Assembly (NCBI GenBank): GCA_030390025.1
Contig: CM059434.1
Span: forward strand, 62,806,001-62,870,000
Direction of reading: 5' to 3'
DNA from: Squalus acanthias
Taxonomy: Eukaryota
Length of the DNA stretch: 64,000 nucleotides
The translations under genes and the position numbers were made by a program. Shown here one piece after another: positions 5,482 to 42,563 of the stretch (position 1 is its first letter; the number at the start of each line of letters is the position of its first letter). The notes below the pieces were generated by a model that saw only the letters and a program-made list of their open reading frames with translations, was not told the origin of the DNA and searched no databases.

Positions 5482-8240
5482 TTGCTCTGGCTAACTAAGG
5501 AAGTAAAGGATGGTATCAAATTGAAAACGAAGGCATACAATGTTGCCAAGATTGGTGGGAGACCAGAGGATTGGGAAATTTTTAAAAACCAGCAAAGGAT
5601 GACTAAAAAAATAATAGAGAGAGAAGATGAATTATGAGAGTAAGCTGGCAAGAAACACTGGCCCTGAAATTCACCTCTCCGGCTTGCCGCGGGGTAAGGA
5701 TCGCGCACGCACTTGCCTACCGCGCCTGCCATTGTTTGTTGGGCCCACGGGAACTTCAGCTCCTGGTCCTGCTCCAAGTGCCGGCGCGCAGTGCTTGCGT
5801 GTCCCAGGGGCGCAGTTAGTGCGATGCGTCCCCTGGGATCACGTGGGCCATGGAGAGCCAATGGCAGCAGACCATCTTTCATTCATAGATTTGAGACCTG
5901 TCAAATCTGTGAATTGAAATCGGCCCCAAAAGAACAGCTAAACTTCAAATAAATTTTTTTAAAAAGCACGTTTATAAAATAACTATGTTAAATAAATTAA
6001 CTACTTTAAACAAAAATTTAAATTTTTGAAAAAATTAAAAAACTTTTTAACAGTGCTAAAAATAAACTTACCTTTCTTTAAAGTATCTAAAAAAAAAAGC
6101 TAAACCTGTTGGAAAAAAAATGTAAAATTATAATTAATTAACCATTTACCTTGTTGAAAACGGGTCCTGCGTCTCCTTTTTAAATGTGCAGGTTCTTCAA
6201 TACTTACCCTCCCGTAGAAACCTGAAAAAAACCCTAAGTTTGCTGCGTGCGCGCAGCCTCTACCGCGCACGCGGTTCACCTATGAACCGCCCCCTTCACC
6301 AGACCGGAAGTTCCGGTTTCCCGCGCATGCAGGAAACCAGCACTTCAGCACGCCTTACGGGTGAGTACACAGTCCGTACTCACCCGGGAAGGGCCGAATT
6401 TTTGGCCCACTAAAACAGATAGTAAGAGCTTCTACAGGTATATAAAAAGGAAGAGGGTAGCTAAAGTAAACATTGGTCCCTTAGAGGATGAGACTGGGGA
6501 ATTAATAATGGGGAAATGGCAGAGACACTGAACAAATATTTTGCATCTGTCTTCACTGTAGAAGACACTAACAACATCCCAATAATGGATAATCAAGGGG
6601 CCACAGGGAGTGGAGAACTAAAGACAATCACGATCACTAAGGAAATAGTACTCGGTAAAATAATGGGACTAAAAGACGACAAGTCCCCTGGACCAGATGG
6701 CCTGCATCCCAGGGTCTTAAAAGAAGTGACTGTAGAGATAGTGGATGCAATATACCAAAATTCCCTGGACTCTGGAGAGGTCCCAGCGGATTGGAAAACC
6801 GCTAATGTAACACCCCTATTTAAGAAAGGAGGGAGACAGAAAGCAGGAAACTATAGACCAGTTAGCCTAATATCTGTCATTGGGAAAATGCTGGAGTCCT
6901 TCATTAAGGAAGCAGTAGCAGGGTATTTAGAAAAACATACTGCAGTCAAACAGAGTCAGCATGGTTTTAGGAAAGGGAAATCATGTTTAACAAATTTACT
7001 GGAGTTCTTTGAGGATGTAACAAGCAGGGTGGACAAGGGTGAGCCAGTGGATGTGGTGTATTTGGATTTCCAGAAGGCATTCGATAAGGTGCCACATAAA
7101 AGGTTACTGCATAAGATAAGAGCTCACGGCGTTGGGGGTAATATACCAGCATGGATAGAGAATTGGCTAACTAACAGAAAGCAGAGAGCCGGGATAAATG
7201 GGTCATTTTCTGGTTGGCAAACGGTAACTAGTGGGGTGCCACAAGGATCTGTGCTGGGGCCCCAACTATTTACAATCTACATTAATGACTTGGATGAAGG
7301 GACCGAGTGTAATGTAGCCAAGTTTGCGGATGATACAAAGATGGGTGGGAAAGCAAGTTGTGCAGAGGACTCAAAGAATCTGCAAAGGGATATAGACAGG
7401 CTAGGTGAGTGGGCAAACATTTGGCAGATGGAGTATAATGTGGGAAAGTGTGAGGTTATCCACTTTGGCAGGAAAAATAAAAAAGCAAACTATTATTTAA
7501 ATAGAGAGAGATTACAAAATGCTACAGTTCAGAGGGACCTGGGGGTCCTTGTGCATGAAACACAAGTTAGCATGCAGGTACAGCAAGTAATCAAAAAGGC
7601 AAATGTAATGTTGGCCTTTATTTCAAGGGGGTTGGAGTATAAAAGCAGGGAAGTCCTGCTACAACTGTACAAGGTATTGGTGAGACCACACCTTAAGTAC
7701 TGCGTACAGTTTTGGTCTCCTTATTTAAGGAAGGATATACTTGCATTGGAGGCAGTTCAGAGATGATTCACTAGGTTAATTCCAGAGATGAGGGGCTTGA
7801 CTTATGAGGAAAGGTTGAGCAGGCTGGGCCTATACTCATTGGAATTTAGAAGAATGAGAGGTGATCTTATCGAAACATATAAGATACTGAGGGGGCTCGA
7901 CAGGGTAGATGCAGAGAGGATGTTTCCCCTCATGGGGAAATCTAGAACTCGGGGGCACAGTCTCAGAATAAAGGGTCGCCCTTTTAGAACTGAGATGAGG
8001 AGGAACTTCTTCTCTCAGAGGGTCGTAAATTTGTGTAATTCTCTGCCCCAGAGAGCTGTGGAGGCTGGGTCATTAAATACATTTAAAGTGGAGATAGACA
8101 AATTTTTGCAAGATACGGGAGTGAAGGGTTAAGGGGAGCGGGCTGGGAAGTGGCTTTGAGCCCTTGATCAGCCATGATCTTATTGAATGGCGGAGCAGGC
8201 TCAAGGGGCCTATTCCTGCTCCTATTTCTTTTGTTCTTAT
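5482..8240 (+). mobile_element. CR1 LINE, 5'-truncated, with a nearly intact RT
   Basis: ORF 6516-7766 has [10 protein letters not shown] and FADD. ORF 7788-8132 is the C-terminus. The CR1 tail ends at ...ttcttatg. Confidence 0.95.
5660..6408. mobile_element. PIF/Harbinger-like (PHIS) MITE, 749 bp
   Basis: TIRs ggccctgaaattc / gaatttttggccc and 3-bp TSD ACT on both sides. Cleanly interrupts CR1 ORF2 (gcaagaaac|act...act|aaaacagatagtaag). Confidence 0.85.
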
Positions 8241-10178: not shown

Positions 10179-13100
10179 CTGCAATTTCCTTATTCCCCAT
10201 TATAATTTCTCCTGTCTCAGCCTCTAAGGGACCCATGCTTATTTTTGCTACTCTCTTTCTTTTACATACTTGCAGAAGCTCTTACAAACTGTTTTTATAT
10301 TTCTTGCTAGTTTACTCTCATGCTCTATTTTCCTCCCTCTTTTAAATTTTTGGTCATCCTTTGCTGGTTTCTAAAACTCTCCCAATCCTCAGCTTTACTA
10401 CTCTTGACAACATTATAAGCCTCTTCTTTAATCCAATACTATCTTTAACTTCTTTTGTTAGCCACAGATGGATCACTTTTCCCGTGGAGTTTTAATTTCT
10501 TAATGGAATGCATATTCGTTTAGAATTTTGTAATATTTCTTTAAATGTTTGCCACTACTTATCTTCTGTCATACCATTTTAATCTAATTTCCCAATCTAA
10601 CTTCGCCAACTCACCCCTCATACCTATACAATTGACTTCATTTAAGTTTGTCTCTCATTTCCAACTTAAAATTTCAGATTGAGTTTGAGAGTGAAATACT
10701 TAACATATATTATGATCACTCTTCCCCAGAGGATCCTTTACTCTGAGATTACTAATTAACTGTCTCATTACACAATACAAGATCTGAAATAGCCTGTTCC
10801 CTGGTTGGCTCCATGATGTCTTGTCCTAGGAAACTGTCTTGGATGCATTCCATGAACTCGTCCTCCAGACAACTTTTGTCAATTTGATTTGCCCAGTCTA
10901 TATGAAGATTAACGTCCCCCATAATTAATGTATTACCTTTGTTACAATCTCCTATTATTTGTTGATTAATACTCTGTCCAATGGTATAGCTGCTGTTTGG
11001 GGGCCTATAAACTACTCCCACCAGTGTTTTCTGCCCCTTGTTATTTCTTATCTCCACCCATACTGATTCTACTTCCTGATCTTCCGAGCCAAGATCCTTT
11101 CTCACTACTGTCCTTATGTCATCCTTTATTATCGGGGCTACACCCCGTCCTTTTCCATTGTTCCTGTCTTTTCGAAACGTCAACTACCCTGGAATAGTTC
11201 TCAACCTTGGTCACCTTGCAAGCACGTCTCTGTAATGGGTATTAGATCAAAGCCATTTATCTGTATTTGCGCCAACAATTCGTCTATCTTGTTACGAATA
11301 CCTCGTGCATTCAGATAAAGAACCTTTAATTTTAACTTTTTACCATTATTCCCTGCTTTCACCTTGTTCGTTGATGCACTTTTACCGTTAAACTATCTGT
11401 CCCTTCCTGTCACACTCTGCTTATCTTTACCAAAATTGCTACACTGCTCCATTGCCTTGCCTTTTCTCTTTAGATTTCTAAATTTCCCCTCACCTGACCC
11501 CCTTCCCCCCCTGCCCCTTTTTAGTTCAAAGCCCTATCTACAGCCCTAGTTATTCGATTCACCAGGACACTGGCTTAAGATGAGACCGTCCCAATGGAAC
11601 AGCTCCCTCTTTCCCCAGTAATCGTGCCAGTGCCCCATGAATCGAAACCCCTTCCTTCCGCACCCCTATTTGAGCCACGCATTTAACTCTCTGATCTGCA
11701 TGTCCCTATGTCAATTTGCGCATGGTTCAGGTAACAATCCAGAGATTAATACCTTTGAGGTTATGCTTTTTAATTTGGACCCTAGCTAATCAAACTTTCT
11801 CAGGAGAACCTCATTCCTAGTCCTACGTGGACCACGACAACTGGCTCCTCCCCCTCCCACTCCAAATTCTTCTCTAGCTGCAAGGAGATATCCTTAACCC
11901 TGGCACTGGGCAGGCAACAGAGCCTTCATAACTCCTGGTTGTGGCTGCAGAGAACAGTATTTATCCCCCTGACTATACTGTCCCATACTACTAAAACATT
12001 TCTTTTCACTCCCCCCACTTGAATGGTCTCCTGTACCATGGTGCCATGGTCAGTATGCTCATTCACCCTGAAGACTTTGCCCTCACCCACAAAGACAGCA
12101 AGAACCTCATACCTGTTGGATAAGGGCAAAGGCCGAGGCTCCTCCAGCACGGCACCTGGGGTGCCCTTACCTGCCTGAGTTGCAGTCACACACTCCCGTC
12201 CCTGACCACTAACCAGACCTGTACCACTGCCTAACCTAAGTGGTATGACTGCCTCCTGGATCAAAGTGTCCAGATAACTCTTTCCCCCCCCCCACTCCCT
12301 TGTGCCCTGCAATGTCTGCACCTCGGATACAAGCTCAACAACTGAGCTGAAGTTCCTCGAGATGCAGACACTTACTGCAGACGTGGTCATCCAGGATCGC
12401 GATGCTCTCCACAATCTCCCACATGCTGCAGTTACAGCACACCACCTACACCGCTATCCCTTTATAAACTTGTTTTATTTATTTAGTTAATTAAAATTGA
12501 TGTATTTAATTTGCAGCTCATAGTTTAGATTTCAACTAATTACTAGATCTAGTTTAAGTTCGGAGTCAGGAAAGTTTACATTGGGATCGCTGCTGGGCGC
12601 ACATGCCCTGTGTGTTGGAAACTGGCACTTCTCTAAGGCAAATGTAAAAGCAGGTTGAAAAGGAATGGGTCAGTAAACTGAAGCGCTACGTTGTCTGATA
12701 CATTATCTTTTTAACCATGCTTTGTTCTAAATTCCGGGCTGTGTACAATTGTGCAGGACTATTTCAAAAAGCCTATCATCACCATGGTGATTGTATACAG
12801 ATTAGGACATTGCTTATTCTTCTCATGCTTTTGTTTATCTTCATATATAATTTGTGTTGCACTGTGGAATTGCTATTCTATCAATCTCTTTACTGAAAGT
12901 GGCTGAGAATATTAATTTCTATCTGTATTCTGTGTAATGTTCACTGTAGTGGTGCAGGAATCCAGTTAATTGAAGTGTTTGATATGACCAGCTGTAATTT
13001 ACATTTTAGTAGCACGGCACAAAGCAATAACAGCTACTCAGATACAGATAAACATGCATTTACTGCTCCCCGGGGGTCATTATCTAATAAAATCTCAGTA

Positions 13101-13914
13101 ATATTATACAGTTGTATTTTTTCTTTTTAATGGTTGTAAGGGTAATACAATTCTCAATTAAATGGTTGGTTGGGCCAACAGGAAATATTGCTTCCTGTTT
13201 CTGTATGCTACTTTCCTGAAGTATGGTTGGAGTTATCCACTAGTATGGTACGTAGAAAAAGAAACCAAAAGCCATTTTAAATTGTTCTCAAACTCTTCCT
13301 TGTTTTATTTTTCTTCTTCTGTCTCTCCCTATCGCATTCATTTTATTTATTTAGCACCCCTCTGGCTCCAATCTACTTGAATTTGGAATTCTAGCCTCGA
13401 CTAACTTGAATTATTGTTATAATTATGGGCTTTTCATAGAGCCATGATCTACCACTGGTTGTTGTAAGTTGACCATGTGCCCTACGATGCAGCCATGTCC
13501 TGCATGCAATGCAGTCAAATGGGAACCAACTTCCCTCCAGCCTCTTGCCCAGCTTCATTTATGTGAAGTCTATTGGAGTAATACATTATTTGCTAAACAT
13601 CTGTCCAGATATGTTGAGCTTTCCCAAAGGGCAATGTTCTAGTTTGGGTAATGGCTAAAAGCATTTCTCAAATGTTAATTGCAGACTTTTGCTTTATAGT
13701 TCTGTATTGATCACTTTTATTGAACACAGTAGTCGGCATTGAAACCAGCATGTTGATCTTATTTACAACTTCCTCTGACTGTCAACAGAGACAGCTCATG
13801 AGTCCAGTCGGATGAGAAACGTATACAAGTATTCGCTAATCTTAGTCATCAGTAATAAATTAATAGTCATTAAAAACTGATTGAAATACTCTTTGTAATG
13901 TACAACTGGCCTGA

Positions 13915-15030
13915 AGAGGAAAAGGTAATCATTGCACCAAAGAATTAGGATTCACTTTCCCATCTTGTTGAGAAATTAAGATTCTTTTTGAGGGGAGGAG
14001 AAAGGGAGTCATAAAACACTACATCATTTGTATAACCACAAGTTAGACTGTCATTCTGATCTGCTGGAGTCTTTCAGAGGCAGTCCTGTGACATACAAGT
14101 TGCCGAACCAATTATGCTACAATATGGTCACTGATTTGGTTCTTCACATTTACATGCAATGACCACCTTATCTTGGCCCAGCTGTCAGTGTTGGGTGCTT
14201 TTGCACATGGTAGATAGCAAATCAGAGGATAATTCAACATGGGTTGCCCTTGCGCATTTAACTAGCAGAAATCTGGGAAATGGTTGTCTCACTGGCCTCT
14301 TGTTCAGAATAAGCTGATTAACTGATGAGCCCAAAAAAAAGAAGCAATTTCTTCAATGTAAAGCTGCATTACACCTTGGTAGTGAGAATTTTAGATCTAC
14401 TGAGTCACAGCTTTTGCTTTTTTGAATGAATCAAGTATAAAGTTCTGTAGGCACTGCCGGTGTGTGTAAGTAACTCACCTGCTGCCTATGTGTCATGAAA
14501 TGGGAAAGGGCCGAAACAACCAATTGGTAGTTTCAATGAGGGGAGGGAAGACAAAGATAGAGAGCGCAACCAGCTGATTCTCATGCTGAAGCTGTTGGAA
14601 TCTTTGTGCCAATAGATGAGATTGATTATTCATCATTTTGTGATCAGTGTGCTAACGAAGTTGTCCTGTGGAAAGGCAAACTGTTTTGCCAAGTATTGTG
14701 CACTCTGGAAGTTTTAGGATTTAGCTTCCCAGCCTCCTATTTGAGAAATATTGAAGTATTCAACAGTTAAGTAGCCATTTTGATCAGTTCGAATCCTTGT
14801 GAGGCAGTCCAAGTGTCAAAGCAAGTTGCTGAATCAATATGTTTGAACTATAGACGTGGTTTTGGTTCCGCAGTTTTACACATCTAATATTAGATCGCGA
14901 GTGTCAATGATGGGTGCTTTTGCACGGGGGAAGATTATCAGTCAGAGGATAATTAAAATCAGTTGCTCGTGGCCAGTTGTAAAGCAGCATTGGCCGAAAC
15001 CTGGGAACAGTTCATCTCCCTGGCCTCTTA
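13915..15030 (+). ncRNA. Two diverged tandem copies of a putative structured RNA module (~720 bp period)
   Basis: Shared anchors in the same order: ttaggatt, ttgagaaat, gaggcagtcc (14077/14801), tgggtgcttttgcac (14192/14911), tcagaggataatt (14222/14942), ctggcctctt (14292/15020). Substitutions preserve pairing. The duplication is directly visible; RNA function is inferred. Confidence 0.55.
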
Positions 15031-17044
15031 GTTTGGGAATATTTCAATGTGGAGGCATCAAACCTGAGTAAAAATGAAGTTGTTTCACATGGTCTGTTAT
15101 TAGTAAAACAGATCCTTGCTAATGTGTGCATTTTGTGGTTGCTGGTGTATTGCCCTGCTGTATCATAGTTTTATGTTTCCCAAATGTTTGAGTGCAGCAG
15201 TGCTTTTGTATAATATTATGTACAAAGCCAGACGTATAAATATTTGACTTTTTTTTTAACCAAAAATATGGCAGCAGCTTAAAAGTTGTTTTCAAACTGA
15301 ATACAACTGGCATCTTCATTTAGTTTCCAGGCAACTGTAGTTCTCTTGGTCTCCTTGCCATAGCACCAATAAAATTGAAAGAATGCTTTTCACTGAACCA
15401 CACTGACCACTAACTGGAATGTCATTTCATGCATCAGACTGAAAAATTGTATTTTGCTCCTTTAATCCTTTTTAAACATAACTGTTGTTTGGCATTCTGC
15501 AAGCTTCCAGTTATTGGGAGATTGATCCTTGAATTTGAATATAGTTATACTTAAAATGTGAACTATATTCTCAAGAAAATGTGGATATTTTTACATTTGG
15601 CTGGTCAGTCAGTATTGTAAATGTGGTTTCTTTAATCATAAAGTACTAGATTTGCCATATGTACTATGTATCATCACTGTGCACTTTATAAGAATGCCTT
15701 GTTTGTATCTGTGTGCTATATATTGTGAGACAAGGGAATTAACCTTAAGCTAGAAGCGAAGTGCATTTCTTTAATTGAGCAATAATACATTTCAAGCGTG
15801 CACTCTTTGTGAATTGAGACTAGGCCTGCAGGCTAATTGATGTGTTTTTTTTCATCTTTTCCAAATTATCTACAGCTGAAAAGACAGGCAGGCATCCCAT
15901 AGTGCCACTCTAAAACTGGCTTGTGATAACTTAACCATGCTGCCCTGCAGAGAAGTGCTTGATTTCCACTTGGCACTTCCCTGCAGTGATTTGGCTGAGA
16001 TTCGGCACTGAGTGCAGATTACCGGTGTGAACTCACATCCCCCACACTGGCACCGTTCACTGGTGCAACAGATTCCACTATGGTAAACTGGCTAAATGAA
16101 GGATGGGACCAAAGGAGTTGAGCCCTTCAGTCAGGCATTTTGTCCTCCTTATCCACATCCAACACACGCAACCACATTGTGTTTGAACAGACCAATGTGA
16201 TCCAGAAAATTAGATTAAATCAAGCCTCATTACAGATTTGTGGAGGTTGGTAAAATTATTTATCAGAACACACATTAGTAAAATCTACCTCCTTTTATAC
16301 TGGTTACAATAGACTTGCAGTGGGTCCAGGAGAAAGCTTGTATTGACAGGTTTGTTCAAATGACTTTTTTAGATTAAATTGCACTGAAATTGCTGGGTGG
16401 CACAGCTAGGTACAACATCACAAATTGCTCACAGCCTAACTTTTAATCGGCAACAAGCTGGTAGTCTCCCTAATATCAAGTATTAGTGAAAGGGGAATTG
16501 GCAGAGTCACACTGGTACAATAGGCTAAGGTACATTTGAGGTTGGAATTAAGCAAATTGTTTGGGCAGAAGCTTTACTCTGCATCAAAATTTTGCTATAT
16601 CATACCTGGGAGGAGTTGATGGTAAGTCTGACGAGAAACAATTCCTTTCCTCAGCACTTGCATTTTTCTTGATGGATACCAAAGCATCTAAGTCCTAACT
16701 CTATAGCAGCACGAGCTTTATTTAGAGAATATTAACAATTTTTGTTCTTTAAATGTTCTGAATTTTAGAAACTTGGATGAAAAATTATAAGGAAATTACT
16801 CAAGTTCAGATTGTATATAATAGTGATATTTAGGGTGTTAACATATGCAGAAACAGTTATGTTCCTTATGGTCTATTTTTTGGATGCACAAGACTTTAAG
16901 TTGAAGATTTAAAGCATCATAAAAAATTAAGTATATATGTATAAACTTAAAACAAGCTTTTACCTTTTTTCTGGCTTAAAATTATTTGAGAAGTAACTTT
17001 TATGCCTTTCTGTTATTTGTCTCTTTGTTTATCCTGATCTTCAG

Positions 17045-17233
17045 CCTCGGTCAATGTCCTAGTCCAAAACTGCAAAATTTACAATGATGCAAGCTGCGAT
17101 ATTTCAGCAGATGGACAGCTTCTAGCTGCATTCATTCCCAGCAGTCAGCGTGGATTTCCAGATGAAGGCATCTTAGCAGTCTATTCCCTTGCTCCGCATA
17201 ACCTGGGGGAGATGCTGTACACTAAGCGATTTG
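17045..17233 (+). CDS. AMBRA1: AMBRA1 internal coding exon (189 bp, phase 1 to 1)
   Basis: Pyrimidine tract and ttcag acceptor, g|gtaagt donor. Translates (A)[62 protein letters not shown](G), which I recognise as the vertebrate AMBRA1 C-terminal WD40 region. Not shown in the ORF track. Confidence 0.97.
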
Positions 17234-17489
17234 GTAAGTTTATTGCAAAGAATACAACATTTATTCAAGCCCTATTTACTTTTAAAATTCTATAGCCTAT
17301 CATTTAGTCCTCTCCTTTTCTTCTGGCCAGTTTTAAGGGAAGTTTCCGTACGTCATGAAAATAACTTAACTACTTGATTGCCACTTACAACAAAGGCATT
17401 TGCCATAATGGTCTCCAATTTTAAAAATATAACTATGGGGTTCGATGGAATGGATGGTGTAGAGGTTTGGACACCCCATAGTAGGAGGC

Positions 17490-17910
17490 TATAGAAAAAA
17501 ACCATGTTGCTTGAGTTATGGAGCTATAATTATGAAGAGAAGTCAGAGCTTTTAAGGGGTTACCAAATAGAGGTCTTCCAGATTATGAAGGGTTATGAGA
17601 AGATAAATGGTGGTAGATTGCTTCTATTCATTGTTGAGACAGTAACGAGAGAGCGCAGATTCAAGATAATCACAAGAATTAAATGGGCGAGTTAGAAAAA
17701 TATTCTTGATGCAGAGGATGATTTGAATGCGAAATTCTCTGCCACAAGCCATTTGTGAAGCAGAGCCAATAACAGAAATTATATAGTGGCTTCAAAAGAG
17801 GAATATTAAAGCGTATGAGGAGCGAGCAGGAGAGTGAGATTAGACTAGATGGGTCATGTGGAGAAAAACTGGTGCAGACGTGAAGAGCCATATGGACTCT
17901 CTATGCTTGC
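17490..17910 (+). mobile_element. Old degraded CR1 3' fragment
   Basis: ORF 17504-17695 resembles the CR1 C-terminus (IEVFQIMKGY). Confidence 0.7.
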
Positions 17911-21892: not shown

Positions 21893-22047
21893 GCCCAAAT
21901 GCTATTTCTGTCAGTTTGTCTCCAATGGGCAAGTATGTGATGGTTGGCCTGGCCTCCCGGCGCATCCTGCTGCACCCCTCCACTGAACATATGGTGGCAC
22001 AAGTCTTCCGATTGCAGCAACCCCACGGTGGAGAAACCTCAATGAGG
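21893..22047 (+). CDS. AMBRA1: AMBRA1 next coding exon (155 bp, phase 1 to 0)
   Basis: cctcag acceptor and agg|gtaagt donor. In frame with the previous exon: (G)[51 protein letters not shown]. Confidence 0.97.
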
Positions 22048-39169: not shown

Positions 39170-42100
39170 ATTTTGGACTAGGGACTAAATTTAAAAAGCA
39201 GAACCACAAAGGTCATAATCTCTGGATTATTACCGGAGCCACGAGCAAATTGGCATAGGGTCAATAGGATCAGCGAGATGAATGCGTGGCTCAAAGATTG
39301 GTGTGGGAGAAGTGGGTTTCGATTCGTGGGGCACTGGCACCAGTACTGGGGAAAGAGAGAGCTGTTCCGTTGGGACGGACTACACCTGAACCATGCTGGG
39401 ACCAGAGTTCTAGCAAATCGAATAACTAGGGAGGTAGATAGGGCTTTAAACTAAATAAGAGGGCGGGGGGGGGGTGGTCCCAGTGGAAAGAAATCCAGAA
39501 TGCGAAAGAGAAAAGACAAGGAAGCAGTGCAGGAAAGTGATTGGGGTAAGGATAACCAGATGGTGTCAGGAAGGGACAGAGTGTACAAACAAAGGAGTGC
39601 ACTAACAAATCGGGTCCAGGTAAGAAAAAATGGTAAGACAAATAGGGCCATAGTACAAAAAAATGTTAAGATGTCTAAAAATGTTAAAAAGACATATCTA
39701 AAGGCACTGTATCTGAATGCACGAAGCATTCGTAATAAGGTAGACGAATTAGCAGCGCAAATAGATGTAAACGGATACGATATAATTTCGATTACGGAGA
39801 CATGGCTGCAGGGTGACCAAGACTGGGAGCTGAATATCCAAGGATATTCGATATTTAGGAAGGACAGGCAAAAAGGAAAAGGAGGTGGGGTGGCCTTGTT
39901 AGTAAAGGATGAAATCAGAGCAATAGTGAGAGAGGATATTGGCTCAGAAAATCAAGATGTAGAATCAGCCTGGGTGGAGCTAAGAAGCACCAAGGGGCAG
40001 AAAACTTTGGTGGGAGTTGTCTATAGGCCTCCAAACAGTAGTGGTAATGTAGGGGATGGCATCAAACAGGAAATTAGAGATGCATGTAACAAGGGTACTA
40101 CAGTAATCATGGGTGACTTTAATCTATATATAGACTGGCCAAACCAAATTAGAAATAATACTGTGGAGGATGAATTTTTGGAGTGTGTACGAGATGTTTT
40201 TTTAGACCAGTACGTTAAGGAGCCAACTAGGGAACAGGCTATCCTAGATTGGGTATTGTGCAATGAGAAGGGGTTAATTAATAATCTTGTGCGGGGTCCT
40301 TTAGGGAAGAGTGACCATAACATGATAGAATTCTTCATTAAGATGGAAAGTGAAGAAGTCCAATCTGAAACTAGGGTCCTAAATCTAAACAAAGGAAACT
40401 ACGAAGGTATTAGGAGTGAGTTGGCTATGATAGATTGGGGAGCTTCATTAAAAGGCATGACGGTGGATAGGCAATGGGTAACATTTAAGGAACGAATGCA
40501 TGAATTGCAACAGTTATACATTCCTTTCTGGCGCAAAAACACAAAAGGAAAAGCGGCCCAACCATGGCTAACAAAAGAAATTAAGGATAGTATTAGATCC
40601 AAAGAGGAGTCAGAAAAAGTAGCAAGCCTGAGGATTGGGAGCAGTTTAGAGTTCAGCAAAAAAGGACCAAGAGATTGATTAAGAGGGGAAAAAGAGAGTA
40701 TGAGAGTAAACTTGCAAGGAACATCAAAGCAGATTATAAAAGCTTCTACAAGTATGTAAAAAGAAAAAGAGTAGTGAAGACAAATGTAGGTCCCTTACAG
40801 TCAGAAATGGGAGAATTTATAATGGGAAAGAAGGAAATAGCAGTGCAATTAAACAAATACTTTGGTTCTGTCTTCACGGAAGAGGACACAAATAACTTCC
40901 CAGAAATGCTAGGGAACCAAGGGTCTAGTGAGAAGGAGGAATTAAAGGAAATTAATATTAGTAAAAAAATAGTGCTGGAGAAATTAATGGGACTGAAAGC
41001 CGATAAATCCCCAGGGCCTGATAATCTGCATTCCAGAGTACTAAAAGAGGTAGCCATGGAAATAGTGGATGCATTGGTTGTCATCTTCCAAAATTCTATA
41101 GATTATGGAACAGTTCCTGCAGATTGGAAGGTGGCAAATGTAACCCCACTATTAAAAAAAGGAGGGAGACAGAAAACACGGAACTATAGACTGACATCAG
41201 TAGTAGGGAAAATGCTATTATAAAGGATGTGATAACAGGACACTTTGTCTAATCCCGTTGATATTTTTTTAAGTCAACATGGATTTATGAAAGGGAAATC
41301 GTGCTTGACTAACCTACTGGAGTTTTTTTGAGGATGTAACTGGTAGAATAGATAAGGGAGAACCAGTGGATGTGGTGTATTTGGATTTTCAGAAGGCCTT
41401 TGATAAAGTCCCACATAAGAGGTTAGTGTGCAAAATTAAAGCACATGGGATTGGGGGTAATATACTGGGATGGATTGAAAATTTGTTAACAGACAGGAAA
41501 CAGAGAGTAGGAATAAATGGTTCTTTTTCGGGGTGGCAGGCGGTGACTAGTGGGGTACCGCAGGGATCAGTGCTTGGGCCCCAGCTATTCACAATATATA
41601 TCAATGATTTGGATGAGGGAACCGAATGTAATATTTCCAAGTTTGCTGACGACAAGAAACTAGGTGGGATTGTGAGTTGTTAGGAGGATGCAAAGAGGCT
41701 TCAAGGCGATTTAGACAAGTTGAGTGAGTGGGCAAATACATGGCAGATGCCGTATAACGTGGATAAATGTGAAGTTATCCACTTCAGTAGGAAAAACAGA
41801 AAGGCAGAGTATTATTTAAATGGTGATAGATTGGGAAATGTTGATGTACAAAGGGCCCTGGGTATCCTTGTACACCAGTCACTGAAAGCAAACATGCAGG
41901 TGCAGCAAGCAGTTAGGAAGGCAAATGATATGTTGGCCTTCATTGCAAGAGGATTTGAGTACAGGAGCAAGGATGTCTTACTACAGTTATACAGGGCCTT
42001 GGTGAGACCACACCTGGAGTACTGTGTGCAGTTTTGGTCTCCTTACCTAAGAAAGGATATACTTGCCACAGAGGGAGTGCAGCAAAGGTTCACCAGACTG

Positions 42101-42563
42101 ATTCCTGGGATGGCAGGACTGTCGTATGAGGAGAGATTGGGTCAACTCGGCCTGTATTCACTAGCGTTTAGAAGAATGAGAGGGGATCTCGTGGAAACAT
42201 ATAAAATTCTGACAGGGCTCGACAGACTGGATGCAGGGAGGATGTTTCCCCTGGCTGGGGTGTCTAGAACGAAGGGTCACAGTCTCAGGATACGGGGTAG
42301 GACATTTAGGACTGAGATGAGAAGTTTCTTCACTCAGAGGGTGGTGAACCTGTGGAATTCTCTACCACAGACAGCTGTGGAGGCCAAGTCACTGAATATA
42401 TTTAAGGAGATAGATAGATAGATTTCTAGACACAAAAGGCATCAAGGGGTATGGGGAGAGAGCGGGAATATGGTATTGAGCTAGAGGATCAGCCATGATC
42501 ATAATGAATGGCGGAGCAGGCTCGAAGGGCCGAATGGCCTACTCCTGCTCCTATGTTTCTATG
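39170..42563 (+). mobile_element. Long CR1 LINE: end of ORF1, ORF2 (APE endonuclease and RT) with frameshifts and stops, complete tail
   Basis: ORF 39500-40678 (LYLNARSI, ITETWL, YRPP, MGDFN, SDH), ORFs 40675-42421 (RT, FADD), and tail ...cctatgtttctatg. Confidence 0.96.

Follow-up and report, generated by a model that had tools for sequence, protein, structure and literature searches.

An old local duplication in an AMBRA1 intron of Squalus acanthias and tests of the RNA fold proposed for it

About 0.55 kb of an intron of AMBRA1 in Squalus acanthias has been copied beside itself by an old local duplication, and a core of ~270 nt has changed more slowly than the tail duplicated with it in both copies. 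It had been postulated in an earlier note, made from the sequence alone, that the substitutions separating the two units preserve a multi-branched RNA fold. However, calibrated tests reveal no shared global fold, and in fold tests the duplicate acts like ordinary homologous DNA. The duplicate is real, old, and probably unannotated, a modest feature that is possibly a regulatory element. AMBRA1 is described as regulating autophagy, D-type cyclins, and neural development, and the cores, if conserved across vertebrates, would represent an unannotated regulatory element in this gene for which the two copies supply a built-in comparison.

The window, that is, the whole 64-kb stretch of DNA that was analysed, contains the two units listed in Table 1. 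Positions 14052-14301 align with 14776-15029 at 67% identity over 265 columns (blastn, E 1.1e-12), and nhmmer gives the homology of the units an E of 1.3e-21; the earlier claim of a diverged local duplicate ~720 bp apart is thus borne out. The anchors of the core are offset by 719-728 nt between the units, and the 5' arm of the helix designated H1 by 769 nt. In a sliding comparison, z is 7-18 across 14021-14380 and 3.2 for the 5' arm at 13940-13976. The two units do exist as described, but the duplicate does not end at 15030, as had been stated, since homology goes on weakly to ~14480 in the first unit and to ~15250 in the second; the outer limits in Table 1 are those of this weaker homology and are approximate. 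The homology of the tails has a z of 3.7-5.0 relative to random intron and a score of 117, where the highest-scoring of 3158 control windows reached 116. On the 5' side, the similarity stops fairly sharply, and no homology was found upstream between 13580-13940 and 14350-14709. The two halves of the core show no significant internal repeat (p 0.32-0.86). A duplicated coding exon was considered and rejected: the core carries indels of 1 and 2 nt, its frames are short (the longest open frame in the duplicate has 74 codons at most), and the exon scan did not select it.

The AMBRA1 setting claimed earlier was confirmed by an exon scan, which identified two AMBRA1 coding exons in the window, both on the + strand and both matching PDB 8wqr_B. 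Neither the exon scan nor a motif search of the window found an AMBRA1 exon before 17045; the duplicate is therefore placed within a long intron, 2-3 kb ahead of the acceptor at 17045. In the 42 kb from 22048 to 64000, the exon scan picked up no third AMBRA1 exon, and consequently the intron there is very long or an exon was missed by the scan. Repeats internal to the window make up ~36% of the 64 kb, and much of this is LINE sequence that encodes domains of reverse transcriptase and endonuclease. The duplicate lies inside the longest tract that lacks window repeats (11786-17554), which speaks for constraint; the second-longest such tract likewise surrounds an exon, which lessens the weight of this point. 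The long LINE copies at 6412-8225 and 39178-42554, whose reverse transcriptase/endonuclease frames are broken by stops and frameshifts, served as negative controls in the tests below. Among the best 120 relatives listed for one LINE frame, the named ones that are most similar belong to Callorhinchus (70-73%), Chiloscyllium (72%), and Hypanus (64%), with bird and turtle relatives at 39-55%, a pattern that points to a cartilaginous fish as the probable host.

Table 1. Coordinates of the duplicate, its helices and words, and the AMBRA1 exons (positions in the window)
Feature	Position	Position in unit 2	Strand	Remarks
Unit 1	13940..14480		+	5' arm 13940-13976; core ~14030-14305; weakly alignable tail 14311-14480
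Unit 2	14709..15250		+	5' arm 14709-14749; core ~14755-15033; weak tail 15041-15250
Core of unit 1	14030..14305		+	72% identity to core of unit 2 over aligned columns; K2P 0.36
Core of unit 2	14755..15033		+	
TTCCCA word	13957..13962	14726	+	complementary to TGGGAA at 14274 / 15002
TGGGAA word	14274..14279	15002	+	
H1	13947..14073	14716-14797	+	aggattc 13947 / gagtctt 14067 vs 14716 / 14791
H2	14079..14104	14803-14830	+	ggcagt 14079 / gttgcc 14099 vs 14803 / 14825
H3	14105..14142	14831-14868	+	gaaccaa 14105 / ttggttc 14136 vs 14831 / 14862
Invariant hairpin / spaced palindrome gtgcttttgcac (gtgc-tttt-gcac)	14195..14206	14914-14925	+	within 15-nt identical block
agagg/cctct junction	14224..14300	14944-15028	+	agagg 14224 / cctct 14296 vs 14944 / 15024
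Extra 6-bp weak hairpin	14042..14060	14766-14784	+	absent from earlier note
AMBRA1 coding exon	17045..17233		+	downstream of duplicate; 64/64 residues identical to PDB 8wqr_B
Next AMBRA1 coding exon	21893..22047		+	49/51 residues identical to PDB 8wqr_B

Every helix word that had been listed is found at its place in both units, and all seven changes within these helices are one-sided transitions through G-U, with no compensatory change. These wobble changes, together with the calibrated tests, go against the idea that the substitutions preserve a multi-branched fold. H1 has three one-sided changes and a pair probability of 0 in whole-unit folds; H2 has one wobble change and reaches at most 0.14 in both whole-unit folds. 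The ggataatt hairpin does not exceed 0.18 in unit 2, and the agagg/cctct closing helix, which is invariant, stays at or below 0.01 in both. Furthermore, the three-hairpin junction that this last helix was said to close is self-contradictory. The agagg (14224-14228) and ggataatt (14227-14234) words overlap by two G, and consequently a complete junction helix would preclude a complete first hairpin. The best-supported shared hairpin is H3, the sole helix that is well populated in both ensembles (pair probability 0.2-0.99); with an inner stem that differs in sequence, it is the fold of lowest local energy in each unit. The same is true of the extra hairpin at 14042, which carries the lone two-sided change of the counted structure (G-C to A-U). 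The invariant hairpin sequence gtgcttttgcac is present twice in the 64 kb, at 14195 and 14914. It had also been argued that indels fall outside the helices, but this follows from having picked helices that are shared and free of gaps, and eight gaps would by chance avoid the 88 paired of 380 columns ~12% of the time. In unit 1 alone, 13914-13936 could form a long enclosing helix with 14155-14172 and 14296-14301, which relies on a 9-nt insertion missing from unit 2.

An unlikely alternative, covering the model of the earlier note and weaker forms of it, is that both copies have been kept as a structured RNA, within the AMBRA1 pre-mRNA or as a stable intronic RNA, in the form of weak G-U-rich local stems, perhaps with long-range pairing of TTCCCA and TGGGAA, that are stabilised by protein. 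Several results argue against it. The single units fold no better than their shuffles, with z of -0.65 (24/100) and -0.74 (25/100). Forcing the earlier note's helices plus two added ones, 44 pairs in all, costs 23.0 and 33.9 kcal/mol above the free minimum; among these pairs, 35 are invariant, 8 have one-sided changes via G-U, and 1, in an added hairpin, is two-sided. Substitutions are found in 10/88 paired columns vs 91/223 others, a comparison that is circular because the helices were picked for being shared. Nulls were then generated with one unit fixed, by moving the substitutions (N2), redrawing the substituted letters (N3), or sliding the conservation pattern (N4). In each of the seven tests, between 15 and 107 of the 120 nulls reached the consensus energy (-27.3, with a structure conservation index of 0.39), and no null was beaten at 5%. 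The claim that the units themselves testify to selection on RNA structure is not supported, since the consensus fold surpasses no null that moves or redraws the substitutions. The overlap of independently computed pair probabilities gives z of only 0.4-1.3.

The results that favor a structured RNA come from shared local stems. Shared helices of at least 6 bp within 60 nt number 5, where placement nulls give 1.6-2.3 (p 0.03-0.09); there are also 5 of at least 7 bp within 150 nt, where these nulls give 1.1-1.8 (p 0.00-0.06), and 6 of -9 kcal or lower at any span, vs 1.8-2.7 under placement and column-shuffle nulls (p 0.01-0.09); these p values are uncorrected across many statistics, and some of the counted helices are mutually exclusive. 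For the best nested helix set, 3 of 12 + strand tests give p <0.05, vs 0 of 12 on the - strand, where 1 of 6 pair-probability overlap tests reached 1/30. Overall, the sense-strand excess of shared local stems is weak (p about 0.02-0.2, uncorrected). The local folding of H3 and of the 14042 hairpin in both units, and the one G-C to A-U change, are also as a structured RNA would have it.

The tests were calibrated against RNAs of established structure. Eleven positive pairs (nine pieces of 23S rRNA, E. coli vs Priestia, and two RNase P RNA pairs), which resemble the duplicate in length and have a pair identity of 69-82%, were used together with 14 LINE pairs from the window as negatives. The consensus-fold z of the positives is 3.3-12.7, 1.8-9.2, and 3.8-10.2 on N2, N3, and N4, respectively, compared with 1.4, -0.2, and 1.2 for the whole duplicate and 0.5, -1.7, and 0.5 for the core alone; thus, on the placement null the duplicate reaches 0.5-1.4. 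The LINE pairs give -0.9 to 3.4, -1.4 to 1.2, and -1.0 to 0.8 (7/14 run). All 11 positives outscore the duplicate on all three nulls, and it ranks among the LINE negatives. When 110-column pieces are considered, none of the seven overlapping windows of the duplicate exceeds a z of 1.2, whereas 52-55% of 33 positive pieces exceed 2. The positives have 5-19 two-sided changes per piece and the duplicate 0; in shared helices of -7 kcal or lower, a cut-off that omits the weak 14042 hairpin with its single two-sided change, the duplicate has 0/59 two-sided pairs, the positives have 3.6-14.6%, and the 14 LINE pairs 0-8%. As many strong shared helices as in the duplicate are found in 4 of the 14 LINE pairs. 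A helix-chain z is less decisive, as the values for the whole duplicate (2.5, 1.5, and 1.5) lie between the lowest positives (1.9, 2.1, and 1.3) and the highest of the 14 negatives (2.8, 1.7, and 1.4).

These comparisons suggest that the shared helices would simply be the many G-U-tolerant stems inherited by two 72%-identical, G+T-rich sequences. If so, paralogues at about 70% identity can yield convincing shared helices from G-U wobble alone. It should be noted, however, that the positives are richer in G+C than the duplicate (50-58% vs 42%), which may overstate the power of the tests, and that two sequences provide little power to detect covariation (PMC8250186), R-scape being expected to have none on such a pair; consequently, a weak, protein-held structure may persist.

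A quite improbable form of this idea would be an undescribed, ancient structured RNA of 400-550 nt, present in two copies plus nearby decayed remnants and shared by jawed vertebrates, which would function either within the pre-mRNA or as an intronic RNA that is itself stable. Its putative fold would combine weak G-U-rich local hairpins with a pseudoknot in which TTCCCA 13957/TGGGAA 14274 crosses GAGGC 14077/GCCTC 14295. TTCCCA/TGGGAA is indeed the strongest shared helix (-12 kcal), which as a long-range pseudoknot would cross both H1 and GAGGC/GCCTC, and both pairings can form in both units. However, they are uninformative about pairing because they are invariant in the two units. Should orthologues show covariation, the duplicate would represent a new large intronic RNA family. 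Published candidate sets offer a partial parallel. The CRS set (PMC5538553) and RLM-Fam (bioRxiv 10.64898/2026.10.24.761493) are like the duplicate in being intronic and sense-strand, with plausible shared stems and scant covariation, and in RLM-Fam only 4.6% of candidates have a covarying pair; they rest, however, on multi-species alignments, whereas the duplicate is known from two paralogous copies. A literature search found no description of a structured RNA or enhancer within an intron of AMBRA1. Two AMBRA1 read islands are listed in supplement file 3 of PMC5538553, both overlapping coding sequence and not tied to this intron; for PMC7941889, 12 of the 20 supplementary files were searched and lack AMBRA1, and the main text of the RLMHelix preprint does not name it, although its supplements may list this locus.

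Other evidence bears on constraint of the sequence itself. The core has 60-67 matches per 100 columns, compared with 46-52 for the tail and 44 for random pairs, and the score of the tail is 175.5, whereas 500 simulations at the core rate all gave at least 277. Given that the core has changed more slowly than the tail, purifying selection on both cores is suggested, and constraint of some kind on the element is judged somewhat probable. In addition, the core has 35 transitions to 39 transversions, compared with 488:337 in the LINE pairs (Fisher p 0.05), which are a coding-derived rather than a neutral comparison. Saturation at some sites together with fixation at others would be expected to give such a low transition share.

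The explanation that is tentatively preferred, though held at less than even odds, is that a cis-regulatory stretch read as sequence motifs was duplicated locally long ago. In this model, a ~0.55-kb intron segment was duplicated in place and both cores then came under purifying selection, which would act on short motifs read by proteins rather than on a shared multi-branched fold. The element might work as a duplicated conserved non-coding element (CNE), a putative module of the enhancer type that serves AMBRA1 or a gene nearby. Like duplicated vertebrate CNEs, it is non-coding, intronic, a few hundred bases long, and present as two paralogues, with a core that has outlasted its flanks. However, most described duplicated CNEs arose by whole-genome duplication, whereas the copies in the AMBRA1 intron are adjacent.

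A candidate motif is TGGGAA/TTCCCA, the most enriched 6-mer in 13500-15200 (9 vs 1.1 expected). Its occurrences span 13520-15182, with one near each end of both units, and it may resemble the CSL/RBPJ core. In control windows without simple repeats, 6 of 47 have a top word that is about equally enriched, corresponding to an empirical p of about 0.1. The GGCA..TGCC hairpin and the YCAY, TGACA, and TAATT words show no enrichment over control introns. Furthermore, the identical blocks show no clustering beyond that expected at random (p 0.15-0.45), which counts against motif-level selection because such selection should tend to cluster them.

This last result is instead compatible with a neutral relic, a somewhat unlikely reading in which an old tandem duplication decays unselected in a slowly evolving genome, its tail having been lost via indels or its core refreshed by gene conversion. 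Conservation that is no patchier than random is what such a relic would have, and the structure statistics of the duplicate fall within the LINE range. Stable folds (z < -2) are likewise not enriched in the intron stretch, where they occur in 4 of 74 windows on the + strand vs 7 of 190 controls. In addition, LINE pairs dip locally to 37-55 matches per 100 columns beside large indels; therefore, a decayed tail need not imply selection. Nevertheless, the core-versus-tail contrast, the low transition share in the core, and the survival of two intact, adjoining copies in a tract free of repeats, even though their distance has reached 0.36, all argue against neutral decay. That distance also bears on age. 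For the epaulette shark, pedigree data give 7e-10 mutations per generation (PMC10587355), and at this rate a K2P of 0.36 corresponds to ~2.5e8 generations, which is too old for a literal reading. The distance and the slow pedigree rate together thus indicate that the duplication is very old.

It is very doubtful that the units instead derive from a dispersed transposable element or a retroposed RNA, whether as two copies that have decayed or as a single copy that was afterwards duplicated locally. The unit length would suit a SINE, the homology ends fairly sharply upstream, and a word in unit 2 at 14787-14796 is B-box-like. This word, however, is not kept in unit 1, no tRNA was called, and there is no long open frame. 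Moreover, the 64 kb contain no other copy, whereas the common repeats of the window occur up to 8 times. The search for a third full copy in the 64 kb used blastn, nhmmer, a sequence model, and two covariance models run with filters off; the covariance-model search of the window, which the earlier note had proposed, likewise returned none. The suggestion that a module array grew by local duplication is accordingly supported as to the local duplication but, with no third full copy, not as to an array. The best internal matches beyond the duplicate score 142 and 141, compared with 149, 147, and 146 in control introns. Three borderline remnants of the core, all on the + strand and next to the units, were noted: 15187-15322 (E 0.25; score 254, with the best control at 220), 14634-14732 (E 0.12; 244.5, with the best control at 239.5), and 14556-14608 (144.5, with the best control at 147).

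Known RNA families and elements were also considered. Rfam 15 gave 0 matches at gathering score in the 64 kb, which also tells against a structured RNA of a described family, and the best E in focused scans was 0.49-1.9. ARAGORN called 0 tRNA genes in the window. Intron-encoded snoRNAs and scaRNAs duplicate locally, and the duplicate resembles them in being intronic and on the sense strand and in having a local paralogue. However, a box C/D snoRNA or scaRNA was rejected, as no RUGAUGA box C is found on the + strand of 12480-17045, and the Rfam snoRNA models reach at best 16-18 bits, far under gathering cut-offs of 52-100; no box H/ACA layout kept in both units was seen by eye, and Rfam gave it no support. 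A hammerhead ribozyme was also rejected, since none of four cores closes stem II at the first GAAA. Hammerhead-like words without a canonical core occur on the + strand at 14322-14530 (CTGATGA, later CGAAAC) and at 13796-13822 (a CTCATGA variant); by eye, the CGAAAC at 14512 leaves a C-C mismatch in stem II, and the 14322 word is absent from the corresponding tail of unit 2. A distant blastn search of 13900-15100 against phages and plasmids found no match, and the exact two-anchor pattern occurs in 0 GTDB genomes.

Several other features lie near the duplicate, all on the + strand. It is flanked by an unrelated pair of similar sequences, 13428-13501 and 15891-15959, with a weaker relative at 12740-12795; the pair contains a 5-bp stem, GGCT..AGCC / GGCA..TGCC, with one A-T/T-A swap. 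It scores 49 vs a shuffled maximum of 35, and 144.5 vs 83-106.5 in focused controls, but in region-wide scans it is no better than the best control matches; thus, the pair is probably real, though near the level of control matches. Just 5' of the 15891 copy, at 15845-15876, there is a strong acceptor-like site with a long pyrimidine run and CAG, which may possibly mark a cryptic or non-coding exon. Sense-strand windows within 15461-15660 have folding z of -2.8 to -4.8. Finally, a long, G-U-containing hairpin of pre-miRNA size is present at 12647-12723 (z -4.6 on trimmed coordinates); it has no Rfam match and is stronger on the sense strand.
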